Shown: one piece after another, positions 12 through 63,999 of the stretch | Layout of the letters: every line of letters starts with the position of its first letter | Position numbering within the stretch: position 1 is the stretch's first letter | Assembly: GCA_016176465.1 (NCBI GenBank) | Contig: JACOXD010000006.1 | Location: 7,878 to 71,877, forward strand | Length of the DNA: 64,000 nt | DNA from: Candidatus Daviesbacteria bacterium | Lineage (GTDB): Bacteria > Patescibacteriota > Microgenomatia > Daviesbacterales > UBA10151 | Direction: 5' to 3' | Translations under genes and position numbers: made by a program | Notes under the pieces: generated by a model | What the model was told of the DNA's origin: nothing | The model's input: only the letters and a program-made list of their open reading frames with translations | The model's database searches: none

Positions 12-1019
12 ATGGGTGAAAGAGGATTAGTCTTTGTACGCAATGGCAGATCAGAAACTCCTATTACAGATCATTTAGATTCATTCGGAAGCGAACCCGT
101 AATATTTGGTAGAAGGCAATCTATAGAGCCTCAACACCCAAGAGAAGGGTTAGTTTTTATGAGTGACACACGTAGACTAATTGTTTATCCAAATCCTCAC
201 GCAGTTATTGGTGCCTCTGCACTACCAGGCGGCGAAGGGTTTATTATTCAAAGCCGAGAAGAAGCTGGAGTAATAACTTTAGCCACATTAGATCCCTATC
301 GCTTAACCCCTCTTTATACCTCTTTACAGACTATGCGCGATAGGAGGTTTGGACCTGTAGTTACCAGCTTTAGACAAACTGATACAGGAGCTTTTGCCAA
401 CATGCCCGGAGTGTATGAAGCTTATGGTCCAGCAGTTGATCCTGGACAAGATTACCAATTAGCTAGCGAATTTAGGTTCATAACACGACACATGGTTAGA
501 ACAGACACCAAAGATTCTTTTGAAAGAGCTTTCCCCGTACATGTACCTGAAGACTTAAGTTATTCTAAAATCCTAACAGATTTTGTTAAACCTAATGAGA
601 TTTATGTTCTTTGGTTAGCCAGTTCAGTTGAGGATAGAAATGGCAATAAAATATCTACTATTTTAGAACTAGATCCCCCTAGAAATCATCTTTGGAGACG
701 TTTTGGTCTAAATCAAGAATTAGAAATAAATAATCCAACTATAAAATCCGCGACAAGATATGGGGAATCTGTTTACCTTTTAGTTGATTCCAAGGACTTG
801 GAAGATCAAGAGAGATCTCTCATTATTAAAGTATCTACTACACAACCTCAAAACCAAGAATTAGTAGACACTGATGGTTGTGGAGGAGAGGTAATTAAAA
901 AACTAGAGATCATAGATTATGATGGTAAGCCTGGATTTGTCGCAATAACAGCTAATAGAGTTTATTCTAAAATACAAAATAGACCTCAATCAGACTGGAA
1001 AACTGCACAACTAGTTTAA
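12..1019 (+). CDS. hypothetical protein; may start upstream of the window
   Basis: 335-aa ORF with no stop in frame back to the window edge. No recognisable motifs. Confidence 0.4.
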   Translation: MGERGLVFVRNGRSETPITDHLDSFGSEPVIFGRRQSIEPQHPREGLVFMSDTRRLIVYPNPHAVIGASALPGGEGFIIQSREEAGVITLATLDPYRLTPLYTSLQTMRDRRFGPVVTSFRQTDTGAFANMPGVYEAYGPAVDPGQDYQLASEFRFITRHMVRTDTKDSFERAFPVHVPEDLSYSKILTDFVKPNEIYVLWLASSVEDRNGNKISTILELDPPRNHLWRRFGLNQELEINNPTIKSATRYGESVYLLVDSKDLEDQERSLIIKVSTTQPQNQELVDTDGCGGEVIKKLEIIDYDGKPGFVAITANRVYSKIQNRPQSDWKTAQLV

Positions 1020-3348: not shown

Positions 3349-3390
3349 CTATTCCACCTGGGAGGTGGATTAGCTAGACACCTAGGGAAT
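3349..3390. repeat. hairpin repeat unit, copy 1 (ccacctgggaggtgg + attagctagacacctaggg)
   Basis: Perfect 5-bp stem hairpin followed by an agctagacac motif. Related to the copy at 3932-3995 in inverted and partly direct orientation. Confidence 0.5.
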
Positions 3391-3411: not shown

Positions 3412-3642
3412 TTATTTTGGTGGTCTGATGCTATCAAGTTGCTTTTGGTATGCTTCACTTGTCTGATCTCTAAAAAATCGAAAAACAGTAGCTGCTCCTG
3501 CCACTACAACCATGGATAAACTCCCCCAAGTAGGTATTGCCTCCACGGACATAGATCTCGTACTTCCTGGAGAAGTTGCTTCCATAGCAGTTGTTAAAGC
3601 AATTGTTAATAATGGTCCACCAATAATAAAAGTTCTCATCAT
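3412..3642 (-). CDS. small hypothetical protein with 2 predicted TM helices
   Basis: 76-aa ORF in a segment bounded by inverted hairpin repeats. Weak call. Confidence 0.2.
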   Translation of the reverse strand: MMRTFIIGGPLLTIALTTAMEATSPGSTRSMSVEAIPTWGSLSMVVVAGAATVFRFFRDQTSEAYQKQLDSIRPPK

Positions 3643-3931
3643 CCTTTCCTTCGTTCTGGCATCGACTATTTGTGTCTCTAAATTTCGTATTTGTTCCTCT
3701 TACTTAATTTTTTCCCTAAGTTCGTGTATCGCAGGAGAATGGTTAGGCAGTAACCTCCTCCCGCCAAGACCTATAACAACATTCCCGCCTAATCTGAACC
3801 TTCTTGCTGCAAACCTTTCTTGAATTCCTGCTTGATGTCCTTCAAGACTTCCTTCACCCCATCGCATAATAAAGTATTATAAGGGTAAATATTTACCAAA
3901 ATCAATTTTCATAGTAAAAGGAGAGGTGCAA

Positions 3932-3995
3932 AGCTAATCCACCTTTCAGGTGGATTATATAAGGCACCTATCGGGTATGAAATAGCTAGACACAT
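3932..3995. repeat. hairpin repeat unit, copy 2 (agctaatccacctttcaggtggatt ... atagctagacacatgagg)
   Basis: 8-bp perfect stem. Shares agctaatccacctNNcaggtgg and agctagacac with copy 1. Confidence 0.5.
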
Positions 3996-12036: not shown

Positions 12037-13173
12037 TCAGGGATAGATTACTTGTCCAACTGCTACCATAATTTGCTCACCGTTAAAAACAGGTACTTCT
12101 CTTAAAACTACTTTTTTTACTCTTCCTTTTACTTTTACCCCATTAAAAGGTGTCCAGCCACACTTGGTATATAAAAACTCATTTCTAATCTCCCACTGCT
12201 CATCTAAATCTACCTCTATATAAGTATTATTGTCATCCTGAGCACGGGCCCCCAGAGGGGAGAAGGATCCATTTAGATTCTTCGTCTCGCCAAAGGCGGA
12301 CTCAAAATGACGGGAAGAAAGTCCAAAAACTTTCTTAGGATTAGTTGAGGTTAGTTCTATTACCCTTTCTAAGGTCAATCTCTTCTCAGCTACAGCATTT
12401 AAAAGTAACGGTAGGGTGGTTTCTAACCCTGGGACCCCAAAAGGAGGGTTTTCTGATTTTAATTTTTCATCAACAGTGTGAGGTGCATGATCAGATGCAA
12501 CCATATCCAAAACATCTAAATTTTTCCAAATATATTCAACATCTTTTTTAGAAGATAGCGGTGGTTTCATAATTCCAAAAGGTCCTAATCTTTTTAAATC
12601 TTCATTTGTTAAAAATAGATGATGGGCAGAAACTTCAGCAGTAATTGGCATTCCCGCTTCTTTAGCTATCCTAACTTGATCAATTTCTGAAGCTAGCGAT
12701 AAATGACAAACATGGAGTCTTTGTCCATGACGTTTTGCCAGATCAATCGCCGTGGCTAGGGTCGGACCCTCTGCGTGAACCATAATTATTTTACTCTTGG
12801 GCCAGTTAGCAAAAATTAACTCCAAATCATTTTGATCCTCAATAAGTAGGGGACCTGTGGTGTGATTCATATACACCTTTAGCCCCCAAACTTTTTTCTT
12901 TACTTGTTCAAAAAAAGGAACAGAAACTTTAGAGCCACCAAAGTGAAACCCTAAATCACAAAATATCCTCCCAGGAGCTAAATCTATTTTTTCTTCTAAT
13001 GATATATTGTCAACTATGGGGTTTGGGTTATTGGGCATGTCAAAAATAGTAGTATACCCTCCTGCTATGGCAGCTTTGCTGCCTGTAGCAAAGTCTTCTT
13101 TTTGGATATTCCCAGGCTCTCTTAAGTGAACATGGACATCAACTAGACCTGGCAGTTTAACAATTTTAGACAT
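12037..13173 (-). CDS. pyrC: dihydroorotase carrying an in-frame palindromic-element insertion
   Basis: Metal-binding LPGLVDVHVHLREPG. Amidohydrolase fold. C-terminal region contains a ~28-aa GC-rich insert. Confidence 0.8.
   Translation of the reverse strand: MSKIVKLPGLVDVHVHLREPGNIQKEDFATGSKAAIAGGYTTIFDMPNNPNPIVDNISLEEKIDLAPGRIFCDLGFHFGGSKVSVPFFEQVKKKVWGLKVYMNHTTGPLLIEDQNDLELIFANWPKSKIIMVHAEGPTLATAIDLAKRHGQRLHVCHLSLASEIDQVRIAKEAGMPITAEVSAHHLFLTNEDLKRLGPFGIMKPPLSSKKDVEYIWKNLDVLDMVASDHAPHTVDEKLKSENPPFGVPGLETTLPLLLNAVAEKRLTLERVIELTSTNPKKVFGLSSRHFESAFGETKNLNGSFSPLGARAQDDNNTYIEVDLDEQWEIRNEFLYTKCGWTPFNGVKVKGRVKKVVLREVPVFNGEQIMVAVGQVIYP
12231..12312. repeat. MITE-like palindromic element inserted in-frame within pyrC
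   Basis: tgtcatcctgagcacgggcccccagaggggagaaggatcc...agattcttcgtctcgcc...ctcaaaatgacgg has the family termini and GGGCCCC core. The ORF reads through it. Confidence 0.75.
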
Positions 13174-20945: not shown

Positions 20946-21049
20946 TGTCATTCTGAAGCGCGGGCCCCTTTAGGGAGGAAGGATCTAAAAGAGCTAGATT
21001 CTTCTGGTCCACTGGACCATCAGAATGACAACTTTGCTCAGAATGACAA
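20946..21049. repeat. MITE-like palindromic element at the def/fmt junction
   Basis: tgtcattctgaagcgcgggcccctttagggaggaaggatct...agattcttc...cagaatgaca with an extra terminal half-repeat. The element's ATG is in frame with fmt. Confidence 0.8.
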
Positions 21050-21912
21050 AACTAATTTTTTTTGGAAATACAAAATACTCAATAATTGGAGCAAAGGTTA
21101 TTCATAAAACCTTTCCTTTATCCGCTGTAGTGACAATTCCTGATAAAATTATTGGACGCAAAAAAGAAGTAGTACTCTCCCCTGTTAAAAAATTTGCCAT
21201 TTTGCATAACATCCCAGTTATTGAGACTAATAAATTAACAGATGAGGTGGTAGACAAAATAAAGTATTTAAACCCTGATTTTTTAGTTGTAGAAGATTAT
21301 GGCCTAATTTTACCTTTAAAATTACTAGAGATTCCTAAAATTGCTCCTTTAAACATTCATCACTCCTTACTTCCTAAATATAGAGGCCCATCCCCTGTTC
21401 CCAGCGCAATTTTAAATGGGGAAAAGTTAAGTGGAGTGACTATAATCAGGATGACTAAAGATATAGATGCAGGGGATATTTTAGCACAAAAAGAATATAC
21501 ACTAATACCTAATGAGACTACTGATTCTCTTTTAACTACATTAAACTCAATGGGTGGCGAACTTTTAGTTGATGTGATTAATCAATATTTACAAGGAACC
21601 ACTACACCACAAGCACAGAATAAAGATAAAGCTACTTTAACCAGACTTATAAAAAAAGAGGATGGGTATTTTGATATTGAAAATCCTCCAGACTCTGAGC
21701 AATTAGATAGAATGATTAGAGCTTACTTTCCCTGGCCAAATGTTTGGACAAAATGGAAGGGTAAAGTAGTGAAATTTTATCCCTCTCCCAATCATCCTGA
21801 TTCAGCTTCCGCCGGAGAAGGATCTATTCTTGTACAAATGGAAGGAAAACAAAAAACTCCTCTTAAAGATTTCCTCAATGGCTACCCAAATTTTCCTATA
21901 AAAAAAATTTAA
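21025..21912 (+). CDS. fmt: methionyl-tRNA formyltransferase
   Basis: FFGN...NIHHSLLPKYRGPSP motif. The first ATGs lie inside the element's terminal repeat, so the real start is likely near 21046. Confidence 0.85.
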   Translation: MTTLLRMTKLIFFGNTKYSIIGAKVIHKTFPLSAVVTIPDKIIGRKKEVVLSPVKKFAILHNIPVIETNKLTDEVVDKIKYLNPDFLVVEDYGLILPLKLLEIPKIAPLNIHHSLLPKYRGPSPVPSAILNGEKLSGVTIIRMTKDIDAGDILAQKEYTLIPNETTDSLLTTLNSMGGELLVDVINQYLQGTTTPQAQNKDKATLTRLIKKEDGYFDIENPPDSEQLDRMIRAYFPWPNVWTKWKGKVVKFYPSPNHPDSASAGEGSILVQMEGKQKTPLKDFLNGYPNFPIKKI

Positions 21913-35724: not shown

Positions 35725-35917
35725 TAAGCGTCATCCCCTCGGGTCTGAGCTCCCCGAGTCTGAGCCTCGGAGTCGAAGACCTGAAGCGCATTAGTAATTG
35801 TCATCCTGAAGCGCGGGCCCCTTTAGGGAGGAAGGATCTCAGGATCTAGATTCTTCGCCTTCGGCTCAGAATGACAAAAAAATATCAGAATGACACAATA
35901 AGTCAGAACGACACAAT
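35725..35917. repeat. composite of two adjacent palindromic MITE-like elements (two subfamilies)
   Basis: gcgtcatcccctcgggtctgagc...ggagtcgaagacctgaagcgc followed by tgtcatcctgaagcgcgggcccctttagggaggaaggatct...gctcagaatgacaaaaaaatatcagaatgacacaataagtcagaacgacaca. Confidence 0.8.
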
Positions 35918-40462: not shown

Positions 40463-40583
40463 ATAGAATTGACTAATTCCCTCTTAAGTCTTATTCTAAA
40501 GATGGACTAAAGATCTGCCACAAATGCTAATAAAGAAGATTTTGAACTCCTAAGGTCAGGAAACCCTAATATTTCCAAGGATT
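40463..40583. repeat. ~120-bp direct repeat copy A (duplicate of promoter + first ~20 codons of gene 41404)
   Basis: About 85% identical to 41345-41464. The reading frame is disrupted here. Confidence 0.7.
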
Positions 40584-40610: not shown

Positions 40611-41195
40611 ATGGTCATCTTCATTGATGAATCTGGTACTCATAAACAATCTGATCATGCAACTATTGCTTTAGTTTATGTAGAAATAACAGATTTGGAA
40701 ATCTTTGAGCAAGCTGTTGAAGGGATTGAAAAAGGGCTTGGTATTAAGTACTTCCACTGGACTGATGAAAAATGGCAAAAGAGAGAAAAATTTATTGAGC
40801 AACTTTTAAAGTTAGATTTTACTTTCAAGGTAGCCATTTTGGAAAATCCTGTTAAACTTTCCAAGGATCTAGAAGAAATATTAAAACACCTTGTGGTTGA
40901 AGAAAATATCAGGAAAATTATTCTTGATGGCAGAAAACCTAAGTGGTACAACCAACGGCTTAAAAAATTACTTAGAGATAAAGGAGTATCAGTAAAAAAG
41001 ATTGTAACAATCAGAAAAGATGAATCTAGCCCTGGAATAAGAGTAGCTGATTGTTTAGCAGGACTTGTCAGAACTTCCTTTGATAATCCAGACTCTTTAG
41101 CTTCCAAGCTATATAACAAATTGAAAAAAGCAAACAAGGTTAGATTTGAATTAACTGGTTACTCGCATAAGCAGAGCTTGCGACCTTCGGTCTAA
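40611..41195 (+). CDS. DUF3800-like protein
   Basis: N-terminal IFIDESG motif and later RVADCLAG, as in DUF3800 proteins. Bracketed by the 120-bp direct repeats. Confidence 0.5.
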   Translation: MVIFIDESGTHKQSDHATIALVYVEITDLEIFEQAVEGIEKGLGIKYFHWTDEKWQKREKFIEQLLKLDFTFKVAILENPVKLSKDLEEILKHLVVEENIRKIILDGRKPKWYNQRLKKLLRDKGVSVKKIVTIRKDESSPGIRVADCLAGLVRTSFDNPDSLASKLYNKLKKANKVRFELTGYSHKQSLRPSV

Positions 41196-41344
41196 AAAAA
41201 GCCCCGCTTAAAGCGAGGCCAGTTGTACAAGTAGTTCCAAATTGCTTGAAACTCGGCGGCTCACCGTCCTTTGTCCCTGCCAACTTGTTGTAGCTGTATG
41301 TTACCACAATTATTATATTAATGTAAAGACATATTTCTTCTTAA

Positions 41345-41464
41345 TAGATTGACTAGTCCCCATTTAAGCTTTATTCTAAAGATAGATATAAATTCTGCCT
41401 TAAATGTTAAGTAAAGAAGATTTTGAACTCCTAAGATCAGGAAATCCTAATTTATCCAAGGATT
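41345..41464. repeat. ~120-bp direct repeat copy B (native promoter/5' end of gene 41404)
   Basis: See copy A. Confidence 0.7.
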
Positions 41465-45102: not shown

Positions 45103-45218
45103 TGTCATCTTGAGCCTCCTCCTTGTCATCCTGATCAGGCGAAGCCTGAGAAGGATCTAGACTCTTCCTCCCTAAAGGGGCCCGCGGCTCAGAATGACAA
45201 AATAAACATCAGAATGAC
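45103..45218. repeat. MITE-like palindromic element (inverted orientation) with tandem terminal repeat
   Basis: tgtcatcttgagcc...tgtcatcctgatcaggcgaagcc...ggatctagactcttcctccctaaaggggcccgcggctcagaatgacaaaataaacatcagaatgac. Confidence 0.8.
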
Positions 45219-45225
45219 TGATAGA

Positions 45226-50226: not shown

Positions 50227-50368
50227 TGTTATCCTTTCGGGTCTGAGCCTCAGGGTCGAAGACCTGATCTTTCCTCTCGTCATCCTGAGGGCAAAACCCG
50301 AAGGATCTAGTCTAGAGATTCTTCACTTAGTACGCTCAGAATGACAATGAGTATACTTAGAACGACAC
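50227..50368. repeat. MITE-like palindromic element (composite subfamilies) between GT2 genes
   Basis: gttatcctttcgggtctgagcctcagggtcgaagacctg...cgtcatcctgagggcaaaacccgaaggatctagtctagagattcttc...gctcagaatgacaatgagtatacttagaacgacaca. Confidence 0.8.
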
Positions 50369-57184: not shown

Positions 57185-57252
57185 TGTCATTCTGAGCGAA
57201 GCGAAGAATCTAATTAGATCCTTCAATCGTTTCACTCCTTCAGGATGACAAT
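57185..57252. repeat. MITE-like palindromic element (minimal form)
   Basis: gtgtcattctgagcgaagcgaagaatctaattagatccttcaatcgtttcactccttcaggatgacaa. Confidence 0.85.
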
Positions 57253-60391: not shown

Positions 60392-60433
60392 TGAGTTCTT
60401 AGATCCTTCGCTAAAACGCTCAGGATGACACGA
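60392..60433. repeat. half MITE-like element
   Basis: gagttcttagatccttcgctaaaacgctcaggatgacac matches the right arm of the family. Confidence 0.6.
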
Positions 60434-60592: not shown

Positions 60593-61138
60593 ATGCCTAA
60601 AACAAGACAACAAAAGAAAGATTTAGTAACTAAATTAGCTGAGAAGTTAGCTAGAGCTTCCAGCGTAGTTTTTGCAGACTATCGAGGCCTTACTATGGCA
60701 AAGCTACAAGAGCTTAGGAAAGCTTTAAGGGAGCAAGAAGCAGAGTTTAGCATAACCAAAAACAACTTGCTCAAACTGGCAATAAAAGACTCATCACTCA
60801 TTACTAATTACCCATCACTGTTTGAGGGTCCAACTGCAACTCTCTTTGCTTATGGTGACCAAATCTTACCATTAAAAACTATGACAAAATTAATTAAAGA
60901 TACTAAAATTGGGGAAATAAAATTAGGTTTAATGGATGGGGAGATTTTAGATAAATATGCAATTGAAAAACTTGCTTCCCTTCCTTCAAAAGATGAACTT
61001 AGAGCTAAAATTGTGGGAAGCTTGGGCGCTCCACTTTATGGAATTGTTGGGGTTTTGCAAGCTAATTTAAGGAATTTAGTTTACGCACTAGATGGAATTA
61101 GAAAACAAAAAGGAGGTGACATACAAATGTCATCTTGA
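60593..61138 (+). CDS. rplJ: ribosomal protein uL10
   Basis: VVFADYRGLTMAKLQELRKALRE...EFSITKN. Stop codon lies inside a MITE terminal repeat. Confidence 0.9.
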   Translation: MPKTRQQKKDLVTKLAEKLARASSVVFADYRGLTMAKLQELRKALREQEAEFSITKNNLLKLAIKDSSLITNYPSLFEGPTATLFAYGDQILPLKTMTKLIKDTKIGEIKLGLMDGEILDKYAIEKLASLPSKDELRAKIVGSLGAPLYGIVGVLQANLRNLVYALDGIRKQKGGDIQMSS

Positions 61139-61201
61139 GCGTAAGCGAAAGATCTCAAGATTTAAGTCTTTAGATTCTTCGTCTTCGCCTCAGAATGACA
61201 A
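61128..61201. repeat. MITE-like palindromic element spanning the rplJ stop / rplL start
   Basis: tgtcatcttgagcgtaagcgaaagatctcaagatttaagtctttagattcttcgtcttcgcctcagaatgacaa. Confidence 0.85.
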
Positions 61202-63032: not shown

Positions 63033-63999
63033 TGTTTACCTCCTTAAATAGCTTAAGTGTCTCTTTTGCAGCTATCTGCCAAGAAAATTTATTTAACTGC
63101 AAATAACCCTTTTTTGTTAGTTTATCCCTAAAATTATTATCCGTTAATTTGATCATACCATCTCTAATTGCATCAATATTATAAGGGTCAACCAAAATGG
63201 CTGCCTCACCTGCAACTTCAGGTAAGGAGGAAATATTTGAAGTTAAAACAGGACAGCCACAAGAGAAAGCCTCCAATATAGGCAAGCCAAATCCTTCAAA
63301 CAGGGAAGGATATACTAAACCTAGTGCTCCGGAATACAAAGCAGGCAAATCCCTATCTTCCACCCTGCCCAGAAATTTTACTTTACCTTCAATTCCCAGC
63401 TTCTTTGGTAACTCGTAAATTTCATCAGATTTCCACCCTTTATCTCCTACTAAAACTAATTTAATACTGTCATTCTGAACCGAAGGTGAAGAATCTATCA
63501 AACTATTCTTTCGCACTTGAGATCCTTCCTCGCTAAAAGGGGCCCGTGCCCTCAGGATGACATCACTAAAAGCCTTAATTAATCTCTCCAGATTTTTCCT
63601 TGGCTGAATTGTTCCTACAAAGAGAAAAAAGTTTTTTGATACTAGGTTATACTGCCTCAAACTGTTTACTAACATCTTACCTTTGACAGCTTTAAATACC
63701 TCTCTATCTACTCCTTCATAAATAACTTTAATTTTTTCCTCCTTAATCCCTACTTTTTCTACTAAATCTTTCTTTGTAGCATTTGATACTGCAATAATTT
63801 TTATGGCAGTTTTGAGTTGAATTTTGGTTATAAATTTTAGATATAAGATTTGTTTTAGCTGATGGTATCCAGGCAGGTATTCTGAACCCAAATCATGAAC
63901 AGTAAGTACAGTTTTAAGTCTTGGATTTCTAACTATGGGCAAAGTATGCGCAGGTATAAAAAGAAGATCTAAGTTATCCTTAAAGGTTTCAATTCCCAA
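63019..63999 (-). CDS. GT4-family glycosyltransferase (N-terminus beyond window) with in-frame palindromic-element insertion
   Basis: C-terminal GT-B motifs FLFVGTIQPRKN...LVLVGDKGW...PSLFEGFGLPILEAFSCGCPVLTS. A 32-codon GC-rich insert sits between the beta-strand and the LVLVGD motif. Confidence 0.75.
   Translation of the reverse strand: MGIETFKDNLDLLFIPAHTLPIVRNPRLKTVLTVHDLGSEYLPGYHQLKQILYLKFITKIQLKTAIKIIAVSNATKKDLVEKVGIKEEKIKVIYEGVDREVFKAVKGKMLVNSLRQYNLVSKNFFLFVGTIQPRKNLERLIKAFSDVILRARAPFSEEGSQVRKNSLIDSSPSVQNDSIKLVLVGDKGWKSDEIYELPKKLGIEGKVKFLGRVEDRDLPALYSGALGLVYPSLFEGFGLPILEAFSCGCPVLTSNISSLPEVAGEAAILVDPYNIDAIRDGMIKLTDNNFRDKLTKKGYLQLNKFSWQIAAKETLKLFKEVNSGAS
63468..63563. repeat. MITE-like palindromic element inserted in-frame in the GT4 gene
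   Basis: tgtcattctgaaccgaaggtgaagaatct...gatccttcctcgctaaaaggggcccgtgccctcaggatgacat. 96 nt = 32 codons, read through as ...SDVILRARAPFSEEGSQVRKNSLIDSSPSVQNDS... Confidence 0.8.

Follow-up and report, generated by a model that had tools for sequence, protein, structure and literature searches.

A TGTC/CGTC-tagged hairpin dimer lies in frame within the dihydroorotase gene of a Candidatus Daviesbacteria bacterium

Repetitive extragenic palindromes (REPs) that carry a CGTC tag have been described as short hairpins in which the tag, often TGTC instead, is unpaired, the stem starts with A-T and T-A pairs, the tail is short and most copies are arranged as opposed dimers (Di Nocera, De Gregorio & Rocco, 2013, PMC3733652). 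They lie near the ends of open reading frames (ORFs), their intragenic dimers encode 20–30 residues, and they apparently have no dedicated transposase; intragenic CGTC and GTAG REP dimers are already known from several phyla, and the CGTC superfamily includes dRS3 of Neisseria and the Rickettsia palindromic elements (RPEs) RPE-4 and RPE-6 (PMC3733652). The classical RPEs of the RPE-1 type are 100–150 bp long, and their product was described as a conserved peptide (Ogata et al., 2000; reviewed in PMC10969869). The NTS hairpins of Neisseria (CGTCATTCCCGCGMAVGCGGGAATCYRG) and the related SRM hairpins flank genes for the small GIY-YIG nuclease Ssn (cd10448) (Chenal et al., 2025, PMC11893778). SsnA binds its hairpin only as single-stranded DNA (ssDNA), cuts a few nucleotides upstream of it and is inactive on RNA; cutting is influenced by the three bases that precede the palindrome, and binding by the C that follows it (PMC11893778). 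Here we describe a hairpin dimer of comparable anatomy at positions 12231–12312 of a 64,000-nt stretch of Candidatus Daviesbacteria DNA (JACOXD010000006.1, 35.6 % GC; hereafter the window), a member of the Candidate Phyla Radiation (CPR; Patescibacteria). The dimer lies within the coding sequence of pyrC, the dihydroorotase gene.

The repeat unit of this family is about 30–40 nt long and consists of a (T/C)GTC tag, ATYCT, GA, a variable mini-hairpin, GA, AGRAT and a tail CT(A). Units with the outer stem ATCCT/AGGAT are referred to as C-type and those with an ATTCT/AGAAT-like stem as T-type. The gene, the inserted element and its two units are located in the window as follows.

12037..13173, minus strand: pyrC, encoding a CAD-type dihydroorotase of 378 aa with the Pfam domain Amidohydro_1; contains ..SSRHFESAFGETKNLNGSFSPLGARAQDDNN..
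12231..12312, unstranded: inserted element, an inverted dimer of two hairpin units with tags outward, at pyrC residues ~287–313.
12231..12270, plus strand: C-type unit TGTC-ATCCT-GA-[GCACGGGCCCCCAGAGGGGA]-GA-AGGAT-CC, antisense to pyrC, outer 5-bp stem ATCCT/AGGAT kept.
12274..12312, minus strand: T-type unit CGTC-ATTTT-GA-[GTCCGCCTTTGGCGAGAC]-GA-AGAAT-CTA, on the pyrC sense strand.

On the coding strand the element extends from CGT CAT TTT GAG to CAG GAT GAC and comprises 27 codons, in frame and with zero stops; within PyrC it is read as ..SS-RHFESAFGETKNLNGSFSPLGARAQDD-NN.. and gives a net gain of 26 residues compared with the empty-site orthologues L084 and L087. The preliminary description of this DNA, which had reported about 28 extra residues, was therefore right about the insert and slightly too high on its size. 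The outer stem of the T-type unit (ATTTT versus AGAAT) was weakened by one T/G mismatch. The GC content of the element was 0.55, against 0.356 in the window. Most of the 120 best PyrC homologues were 350–356 aa long and did not have the segment, and in an alignment of 23 PyrCs it was confined to a few close relatives. An assembly made independently from a different sequencing run (L089, SRR12113430) was 100 % identical across 12.5 kb, insert included, which indicates that the insert is not an artefact of a single assembly.

The pyrC product was identical to protein P0001, named as an amidohydrolase of Candidatus Daviesbacteria in the homologue search; its identity as a dihydroorotase (DHOase) was given by the Pfam domain and by homologues with DHOase domains. 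The gene belongs to a pyrF-pyrE-pyrC cluster upstream of mreC-mreD-PBP2 (neighbouring Pfam domains OMPdecase, Pribosyltran, MreC and PBP), and the protein kept all the family-invariant residues in the alignment of 23 homologues. An AlphaFold2 model of PyrC, built on the alignment, had a mean predicted local distance difference test (pLDDT) score of 88. Residues 287–312, between the last barrel helix (268–282) and the strand 318–328, were the sole stretch with a pLDDT below 50. Judged by this model, the insert most likely forms a disordered surface loop of ~26–27 residues on an otherwise confidently predicted fold, as had been anticipated when a structural check was first proposed. The top PDB matches of the model were to the human CAD DHOase domain (40–41 % identity, TM 0.88–0.92). 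Among solved structures this human domain was the closest, its identity being well above that of bacterial DHOases (25–29 %).

Each unit comprised a free 5′ tag, a stem of 5 bp (ATYCT/AGRAT), an internal loop made of GA/GA and a conserved C directly after the palindrome, and in the window units the stem opened with complementary A-T and T-A pairs. The canonical stem has 5 bp, GA/GA and 2 bp enclosing a 3-nt loop, that is, nine stem positions with the G/A pairs included. Inner loops were mostly GNA triloops (GAA, GCA, GTA, GGA), of the kind found in the very stable d(GCGNAGC) mini-hairpin. Single-unit DNA folded as ....(((((..(((...)))..)))))... with the 4-nt tag unpaired. Covariation was assessed on metagenome matches retrieved by a pattern placing no constraint on Y and R, and these two positions paired in 162 of the 163 independent copies (90 T-A, 72 C-G, one T-G and no C-A; Fisher p=3e-46). 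Seven of the eight dimers in the window combined one C-type with one T-type unit, a mixture which places the pairing inside the units and not between the two arms. A single long hairpin with paired ends, as drawn in minimum free energy folds, was considered and rejected on the strength of the mixed dimers and of the covariation within units. In the metagenome set, 30 unit pairs had their tags outward, five had them inward and one was in tandem.

The sequence TGTCATYCTGA, comprising the tag and left arm, occurred 24 times in the window compared with 1.8 occurrences expected from shuffles. Together with the sequence itself and the ORF translation, this bears out the initial proposal that the segment at 12231–12312 is an in-frame copy of a dispersed palindromic repeat. 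The window contained eight full dimers plus solo units, amounting to 18 full units in 64 kb, of which five were intragenic. Every one of the 18 carried TGTC or CGTC, except for the degenerate AATC in fmt. The dimers had a GC content of 0.40–0.55, above that of the genome. Copies other than that in pyrC were as follows.

63468..63562, unstranded: in-frame dimer, read as VILRARAPFSEEGSQVRKNSLIDSSPSVQND; the host gene (63019..>63999, minus strand) encodes a family-4 glycosyltransferase.
21790..21824, plus strand: degenerate solo unit in the 3′ part of fmt (21025..21912, assigned by Pfam), read as NHPDSASAGEGS near the Fmt C-terminus.
20946..21030, unstranded: intergenic dimer between def and fmt, beginning 2 nt past the def stop; a solo tag follows at 21038–21048.
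35799..35876, unstranded: intergenic dimer; solo tags follow at 35885–35895 and 35903–35913.
45124..45199, unstranded: intergenic dimer; solo tags at 45103–45113 and 45209–45219.
50278..50346, unstranded: intergenic dimer.
57185..57250, unstranded: intergenic dimer whose left unit is canonical, TGTCATTCTGA-GCGAAGC-GAAGAATCT.
60402..60430, minus strand: intergenic solo unit.
61128..61200, unstranded: dimer between rplJ and rplL, with the stop codon of rplJ (61136–61138) inside its tag.

Across the window dimers, nine of 48 reading frames were open, which is close to the random level; the in-gene copies therefore look filtered by selection and not built to code, and the idea of elements designed to code was rejected. 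In the relative L088 a better-kept orthologous fmt unit, SHPDPANAGEGS, was present at 636–670 (minus strand), at an equal distance from the stop codon, whilst the def–fmt gap there was only 30 nt. The listed fmt ATG (21025) falls in the tag of the def/fmt dimer; like the ATG of the listed rplL ORF (61195), it lies within the tag sequence TCAGAATGACA. The listed rplL start is probably false, as the Pfam N-terminal domain begins only at residue 53.

Solo 11-nt copies of the tag plus left arm (TCAGAATGACA / TGTCATCTTGA) stood beside full dimers with a spacing of 18–19 nt, and may represent partial duplications, abortive events or arrays of binding sites. A second hairpin family, GGTCTGA-GCC..-GAAGACC, was present at 35755–35784 and 50238–50267 as two 90 % identical copies, each just upstream of a dimer and sharing the stem-GA-hairpin-GA-stem design. 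Logan short-read contigs of the organism (L090, L091, L212 and L213) were 3–12 kb long, and L091 ended 13 nt before the dimer at 50278, which is consistent with fragmentation of short-read assemblies by the repeats. Rfam at gathering thresholds returned no match at the elements and, for the window, only three tRNAs and a DUF3800-II RNA. The latter (41217–41291, minus strand; 55 bits, gathering threshold 43.2) lay just downstream of a DUF3800 gene (40611..41195, plus strand), and direct repeats of ~115 nt (40468–40583 and 41348–41464, 76–92 % identical) preceded this gene and the next ORF. Elsewhere in the window, a 34-nt inverted repeat (3350–3383 and 3924–3957, 82 % complementary) had its arms 540 nt apart around the ORF 3512..3823.

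The pyrC site was variable among relatives. Three other Daviesbacteria (L081, L082 and L083) carried a like dimer at the same codon and in the same phase as in the window (RH[SF]E...QDD), with inner hairpins that differed and were still near-perfect. A different GC-rich hairpin occupied that codon in three further relatives, in the following genes.

L085 247–1383, L086 4431–5534 and L088 10001–11086: pyrC with the GC-rich hairpin insert (GVKLxHPEGV..).

The site was empty in L084 and L087. The insert is missing from most PyrCs, as had been expected at the outset, and is not private to this genome. The alternative raised with that expectation, in which relatives encode the same segment with unrelated DNA, did not apply to L081–L083; the other three insert-bearing relatives had their own hairpin. 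The L081 and L082 units had an inner ACC(C)GGAGG(G)T in common with the GC-rich hairpin. The four orthologous type-A pyrC inserts differed in length and were all stop-free multiples of three. In another Daviesbacteria pyrC (L006, 10001–11206) a CGTC-tagged dimer was found at a second, different site, and L006 and P0047 also had another hairpin (CCCTC..GAGGG, read as KGEGQGEG) at a second site.

A similar situation was found in the glycosyltransferase. Most Daviesbacteria homologues carried differing unit-derived peptides at a shared position (VILNKAKRSEGS..PQDD, CHSGAKRSEAIES..LQDD, VIARNEVTKQS..VRND) and a few were empty; unit-derived peptides were present at further sites too. Many of these inserts were stop-free multiples of three, and an identical decorated glycosyltransferase was encoded in the assemblies of two other runs. 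Units with the exact signature were dense in the window (3.6 tags per 10 kb) and sparse in its closest relatives; more distant Daviesbacteria loci had none of them but contained related variants.

A single ancestral insertion as the whole history of the pyrC site was not supported, since the bearers were not monophyletic and a clade with 98 % bootstrap contained both insert types. The site may have received its insert long ago, with later concerted evolution and near-precise deletions; it may have been re-targeted while occupied; or loops that tolerate an insert may be very few. It is conceivable, if doubtful, that units in CPR bacteria re-target or overwrite positions that are already occupied, either through an Ssn-type nick in single-stranded DNA just upstream of the hairpin or through gene conversion among copies. 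The basis for this suggestion is that variants of the unit, another hairpin or nothing were found at one codon in a distribution that did not track the gene tree, and that the hairpins were near-perfect in host proteins only 67–70 % identical. A similar pattern is published for Xanthomonas, where different REPs occupy one site of orthologous recB genes (PMC3733652). Were re-targeting to take place, pyrC residue ~286 and the glycosyltransferase linker would be self-renewing hypervariable insertion cassettes, and such cassettes would link a nuclease to the generation of loop diversity and/or to the control of recombination in bacteria that are naturally competent and host-dependent.

Independently of the published link to Ssn, a mobilizing enzyme was sought by clustering 847 ORFs located within 1.5 kb of units at 80 unrelated metagenome loci. 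No recurrent transposase family was found among them, and the sole recurrent, relevant-looking small family was a GIY-YIG protein of ~100 aa. A GIY-YIG profile matched five of 120 pattern-selected loci (0.61 Mb) compared with none in 1.3 Mb of other loci. The unit-adjacent genes (PF01541 in Pfam) encoded 96–105 aa and lay 0–420 nt from units, with units on both sides in L176 and L163. The unit-flanked family was very large, with members of about 96 aa in several phyla, and NCBIfam had no specific model for it. The 96-aa proteins P0241–P0360 were ~80 % identical across contigs of Nitrospirota, Nitrospinota, Armatimonadota and Binatia, a degree of conservation across phyla that suggests horizontal spread.

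We regard the following account, taken as a whole, as probable, and are more confident of the anatomy and the family assignment. Units that are CGTC/TGTC-tagged and equivalent to SRM would have multiplied in this Daviesbacteria genome, and in-gene copies would persist only where they keep the host frame open and add a peptide that does no harm. The pyrC dimer would have been fixed in a permissive inter-domain loop at the junction of the catalytic barrel and the C-terminal strands, its 27 codons presumably being read through to give an enzyme that keeps its function and bears a disordered surface loop. An Ssn-type nuclease may recognize the units in single-stranded form, and their spread could be due to this enzyme or to recombination among copies.

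Several points weigh against this account. Translation of the insert and activity of PyrC are what we infer from the gene. The thermodynamic z-scores of single units were modest, and for this reason the case for the hairpin is built on covariation. The insert-bearing PyrCs were not monophyletic in a neighbour-joining tree, in which the group with 98 % bootstrap mixed type-A and type-B inserts and empty-site PyrCs were interspersed. A permissive profile search that covered the 64-kb window and 0.49 Mb from CPR loci found no ssn-like gene, and none of the best 120 relatives of the unit-flanked nucleases was labelled CPR, these being close relatives in other phyla and uninformative on CPR. As no ssn gene was seen in the examined DNA, our confidence that Ssn acts on the units in this organism is lowered to about an even chance. 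The SRM pattern HGTCWYN(0-2)YYVSBRHN(0-5)WNVSBRGN(0-2)RNCYNB, which matches NTS, gave no matches in the window. This pattern is a search heuristic derived from 29 genomes of four phyla (PMC11893778), and the units escape it mainly because GA/GA replaces G-C stem pairs; they are accordingly treated as an SRM-like variant, for which homology and a like mechanism are claimed and not membership of the pattern. In the literature, the mechanism by which SRMs and CGTC REPs multiply is unknown (PMC3733652, PMC11893778).

Mobilization of a REPIN-like element (a doublet of REP hairpins) by a REP-associated tyrosine transposase (RAYT, of the HUH/Y1 type), and not by or with an Ssn GIY-YIG nuclease, appears unlikely. 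Two hairpin units facing opposite ways, with a tetranucleotide conserved at the 5′ end, do correspond to REPIN anatomy (PMC3116915), and the examined CPR sequence had no ssn gene. The tag, however, was TGTC/CGTC and not GTAG, no RAYT has been found flanked by CGTC repeats (PMC3733652), and the ORF clustering returned only the GIY-YIG family and no recurrent transposase.

The term ‘MITE-like’ used in the preliminary description proved imprecise. A classical miniature inverted-repeat transposable element (MITE) would be a deletion derivative of an insertion sequence (IS), with terminal inverted repeats, a DDE transposase and target-site duplications. The element is short, AT-flanked and dispersed, and its outer 11 nt (TGTCATYCTGA / TCAGRATGACA) resemble terminal inverted repeats. 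No flanking target-site duplication was found at any of the eight window dimers, however, and the neighbourhood of the units revealed no IS ending in these sequences. The self-folding unit of ~30–40 nt also occurred alone and in varied combinations, with covariation inside each unit and not between the two ends, and the only protein family that recurred beside such units at metagenome loci was a small GIY-YIG nuclease and not a transposase. A MITE origin is thus very improbable.

We give hardly any credence to the possibility that the insert is absent from the mature protein, through excision from mRNA or protein, or that pyrC is a decaying pseudogene. The segment does form hairpins that could be processed, but its 81 nt are far too few for a self-splicing intron or an intein, and RNA is not a substrate of the published SsnA. 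Excision would also require no reading-frame constraint, whereas the four orthologous pyrC inserts and many of those in the glycosyltransferase kept to stop-free multiples of three; as regards decay, the catalytic and family-invariant residues and the pyr cluster were intact. A native, lineage-specific PyrC loop with a coincidental resemblance to the repeat, for which it can be said that several related PyrCs have extra residues at that position, is effectively refuted by the equally close orthologues with an empty site and by the unit anatomy (full tag, stem, GA and tail signature in both units, on opposite strands), together with the GC content of 0.55 in a 0.356 genome and a 20-nt left end without chance expectation.

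In-frame REP and RPE insertions and the link between SRM and Ssn are already published. The novelty here lies in the CPR host, in a GA/GA variant that escapes the SRM pattern, in the large proportion of intragenic units and in the turnover at one and the same site in each of two genes. The first description had presented the insert as the Rickettsia phenomenon in a very different lineage; the host lineage is indeed new, whereas cases outside Rickettsia had been published before (PMC3733652). Literature searches with the motif string gave only primers and vector sequences, and those on palindromic elements in CPR gave nothing specific. The present case adds CPR, another small-genome, dependent group, to Rickettsia and the few further lineages with selfish DNA inside coding genes, and ties the phenomenon to the recently characterized Ssn/SRM system. 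With about a quarter of the window units being intragenic, Daviesbacteria are well suited to the study of insert tolerance and turnover. The variant TGTCATYCTGA...GAAGRATCT was abundant on metagenome contigs of 30 to 70 % GC, and a large class is probably missing from existing surveys of SRMs and of the Ssn specificities that are useful as tools for ssDNA. The repeats also matter for annotation, in that they lengthen proteins, give false start and real stop codons and would break short-read assemblies.

The likeness to Rickettsia palindromic elements, first noted as a parallel, is more than analogy, as the units have the TGTC/CGTC tag and AT-initiated stem of the superfamily that includes RPE-4 and RPE-6 (PMC3733652); the link is made through this assignment by Di Nocera et al. 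and not by comparison with RPE consensus sequences. Both kinds of element lie in frame in unrelated housekeeping genes and are tolerated as an extra surface peptide, and both hosts have a reduced genome and a host-associated lifestyle. Unlike RPE-1, the units form dimers of 66–95 bp with variable inner hairpins, and their open frames are no commoner than chance. The REPIN-RAYT system (Bertels & Rainey, 2011, PMC3116915) likewise has non-autonomous, opposed hairpin doublets with a conserved 5′ tetranucleotide, but that system has a GTAG tag and the gene of an HUH tyrosine transposase flanked by the repeats, whereas the units have TGTC/CGTC and no recurrent transposase nearby.

Like NTS and SRM, the units are directional repeats with GTC upstream of the palindrome and C directly after it (TGTC-[palindrome]-C-T), and at metagenome loci they flank genes for single-domain GIY-YIG proteins of 96–105 aa, a likeness established at the level of PF01541. 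The unit TGTCATTCTGAGCGAAGCGAAGAATCTA could be aligned position by position with NTS CGTCATTCCCGCGMAVGCGGGAATCYRG, keeping the upstream GTC and the post-palindrome C. The GNA loops and GA pairs of the units fit a hairpin acting as ssDNA. A role in natural transformation has been demonstrated for Neisseria only, and NTS is rarely intragenic (2 % in N. meningitidis), in contrast to five of 18 units here.

The units also correspond to CGTC-tagged REPs, with which they share the tag, the A-T/T-A start of the stem, the short unpaired tail and the arrangement in opposed dimers, as well as the position close to ORF 3′ ends, where they sometimes supply stop codons, and the occurrence of intragenic dimers. 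The stem of the units is broken by GA/GA (5 bp + GA/GA + 2–6 bp), whereas that of CGTC-tagged REPs is continuous over 8–9 bp, and the loop is often a 3-nt GNA with a CT(A) tail, compared with 4–5 nt and a tail near CCA in CGTC-1 to CGTC-4. Judged by the text descriptions of those families, the units fall outside CGTC-1 to CGTC-4; their host phylum lies outside the published survey (PMC3733652), and their intragenic share is high. Their anatomy indicates that the units are most likely members of the broader class of CGTC/TGTC-tagged REPs.

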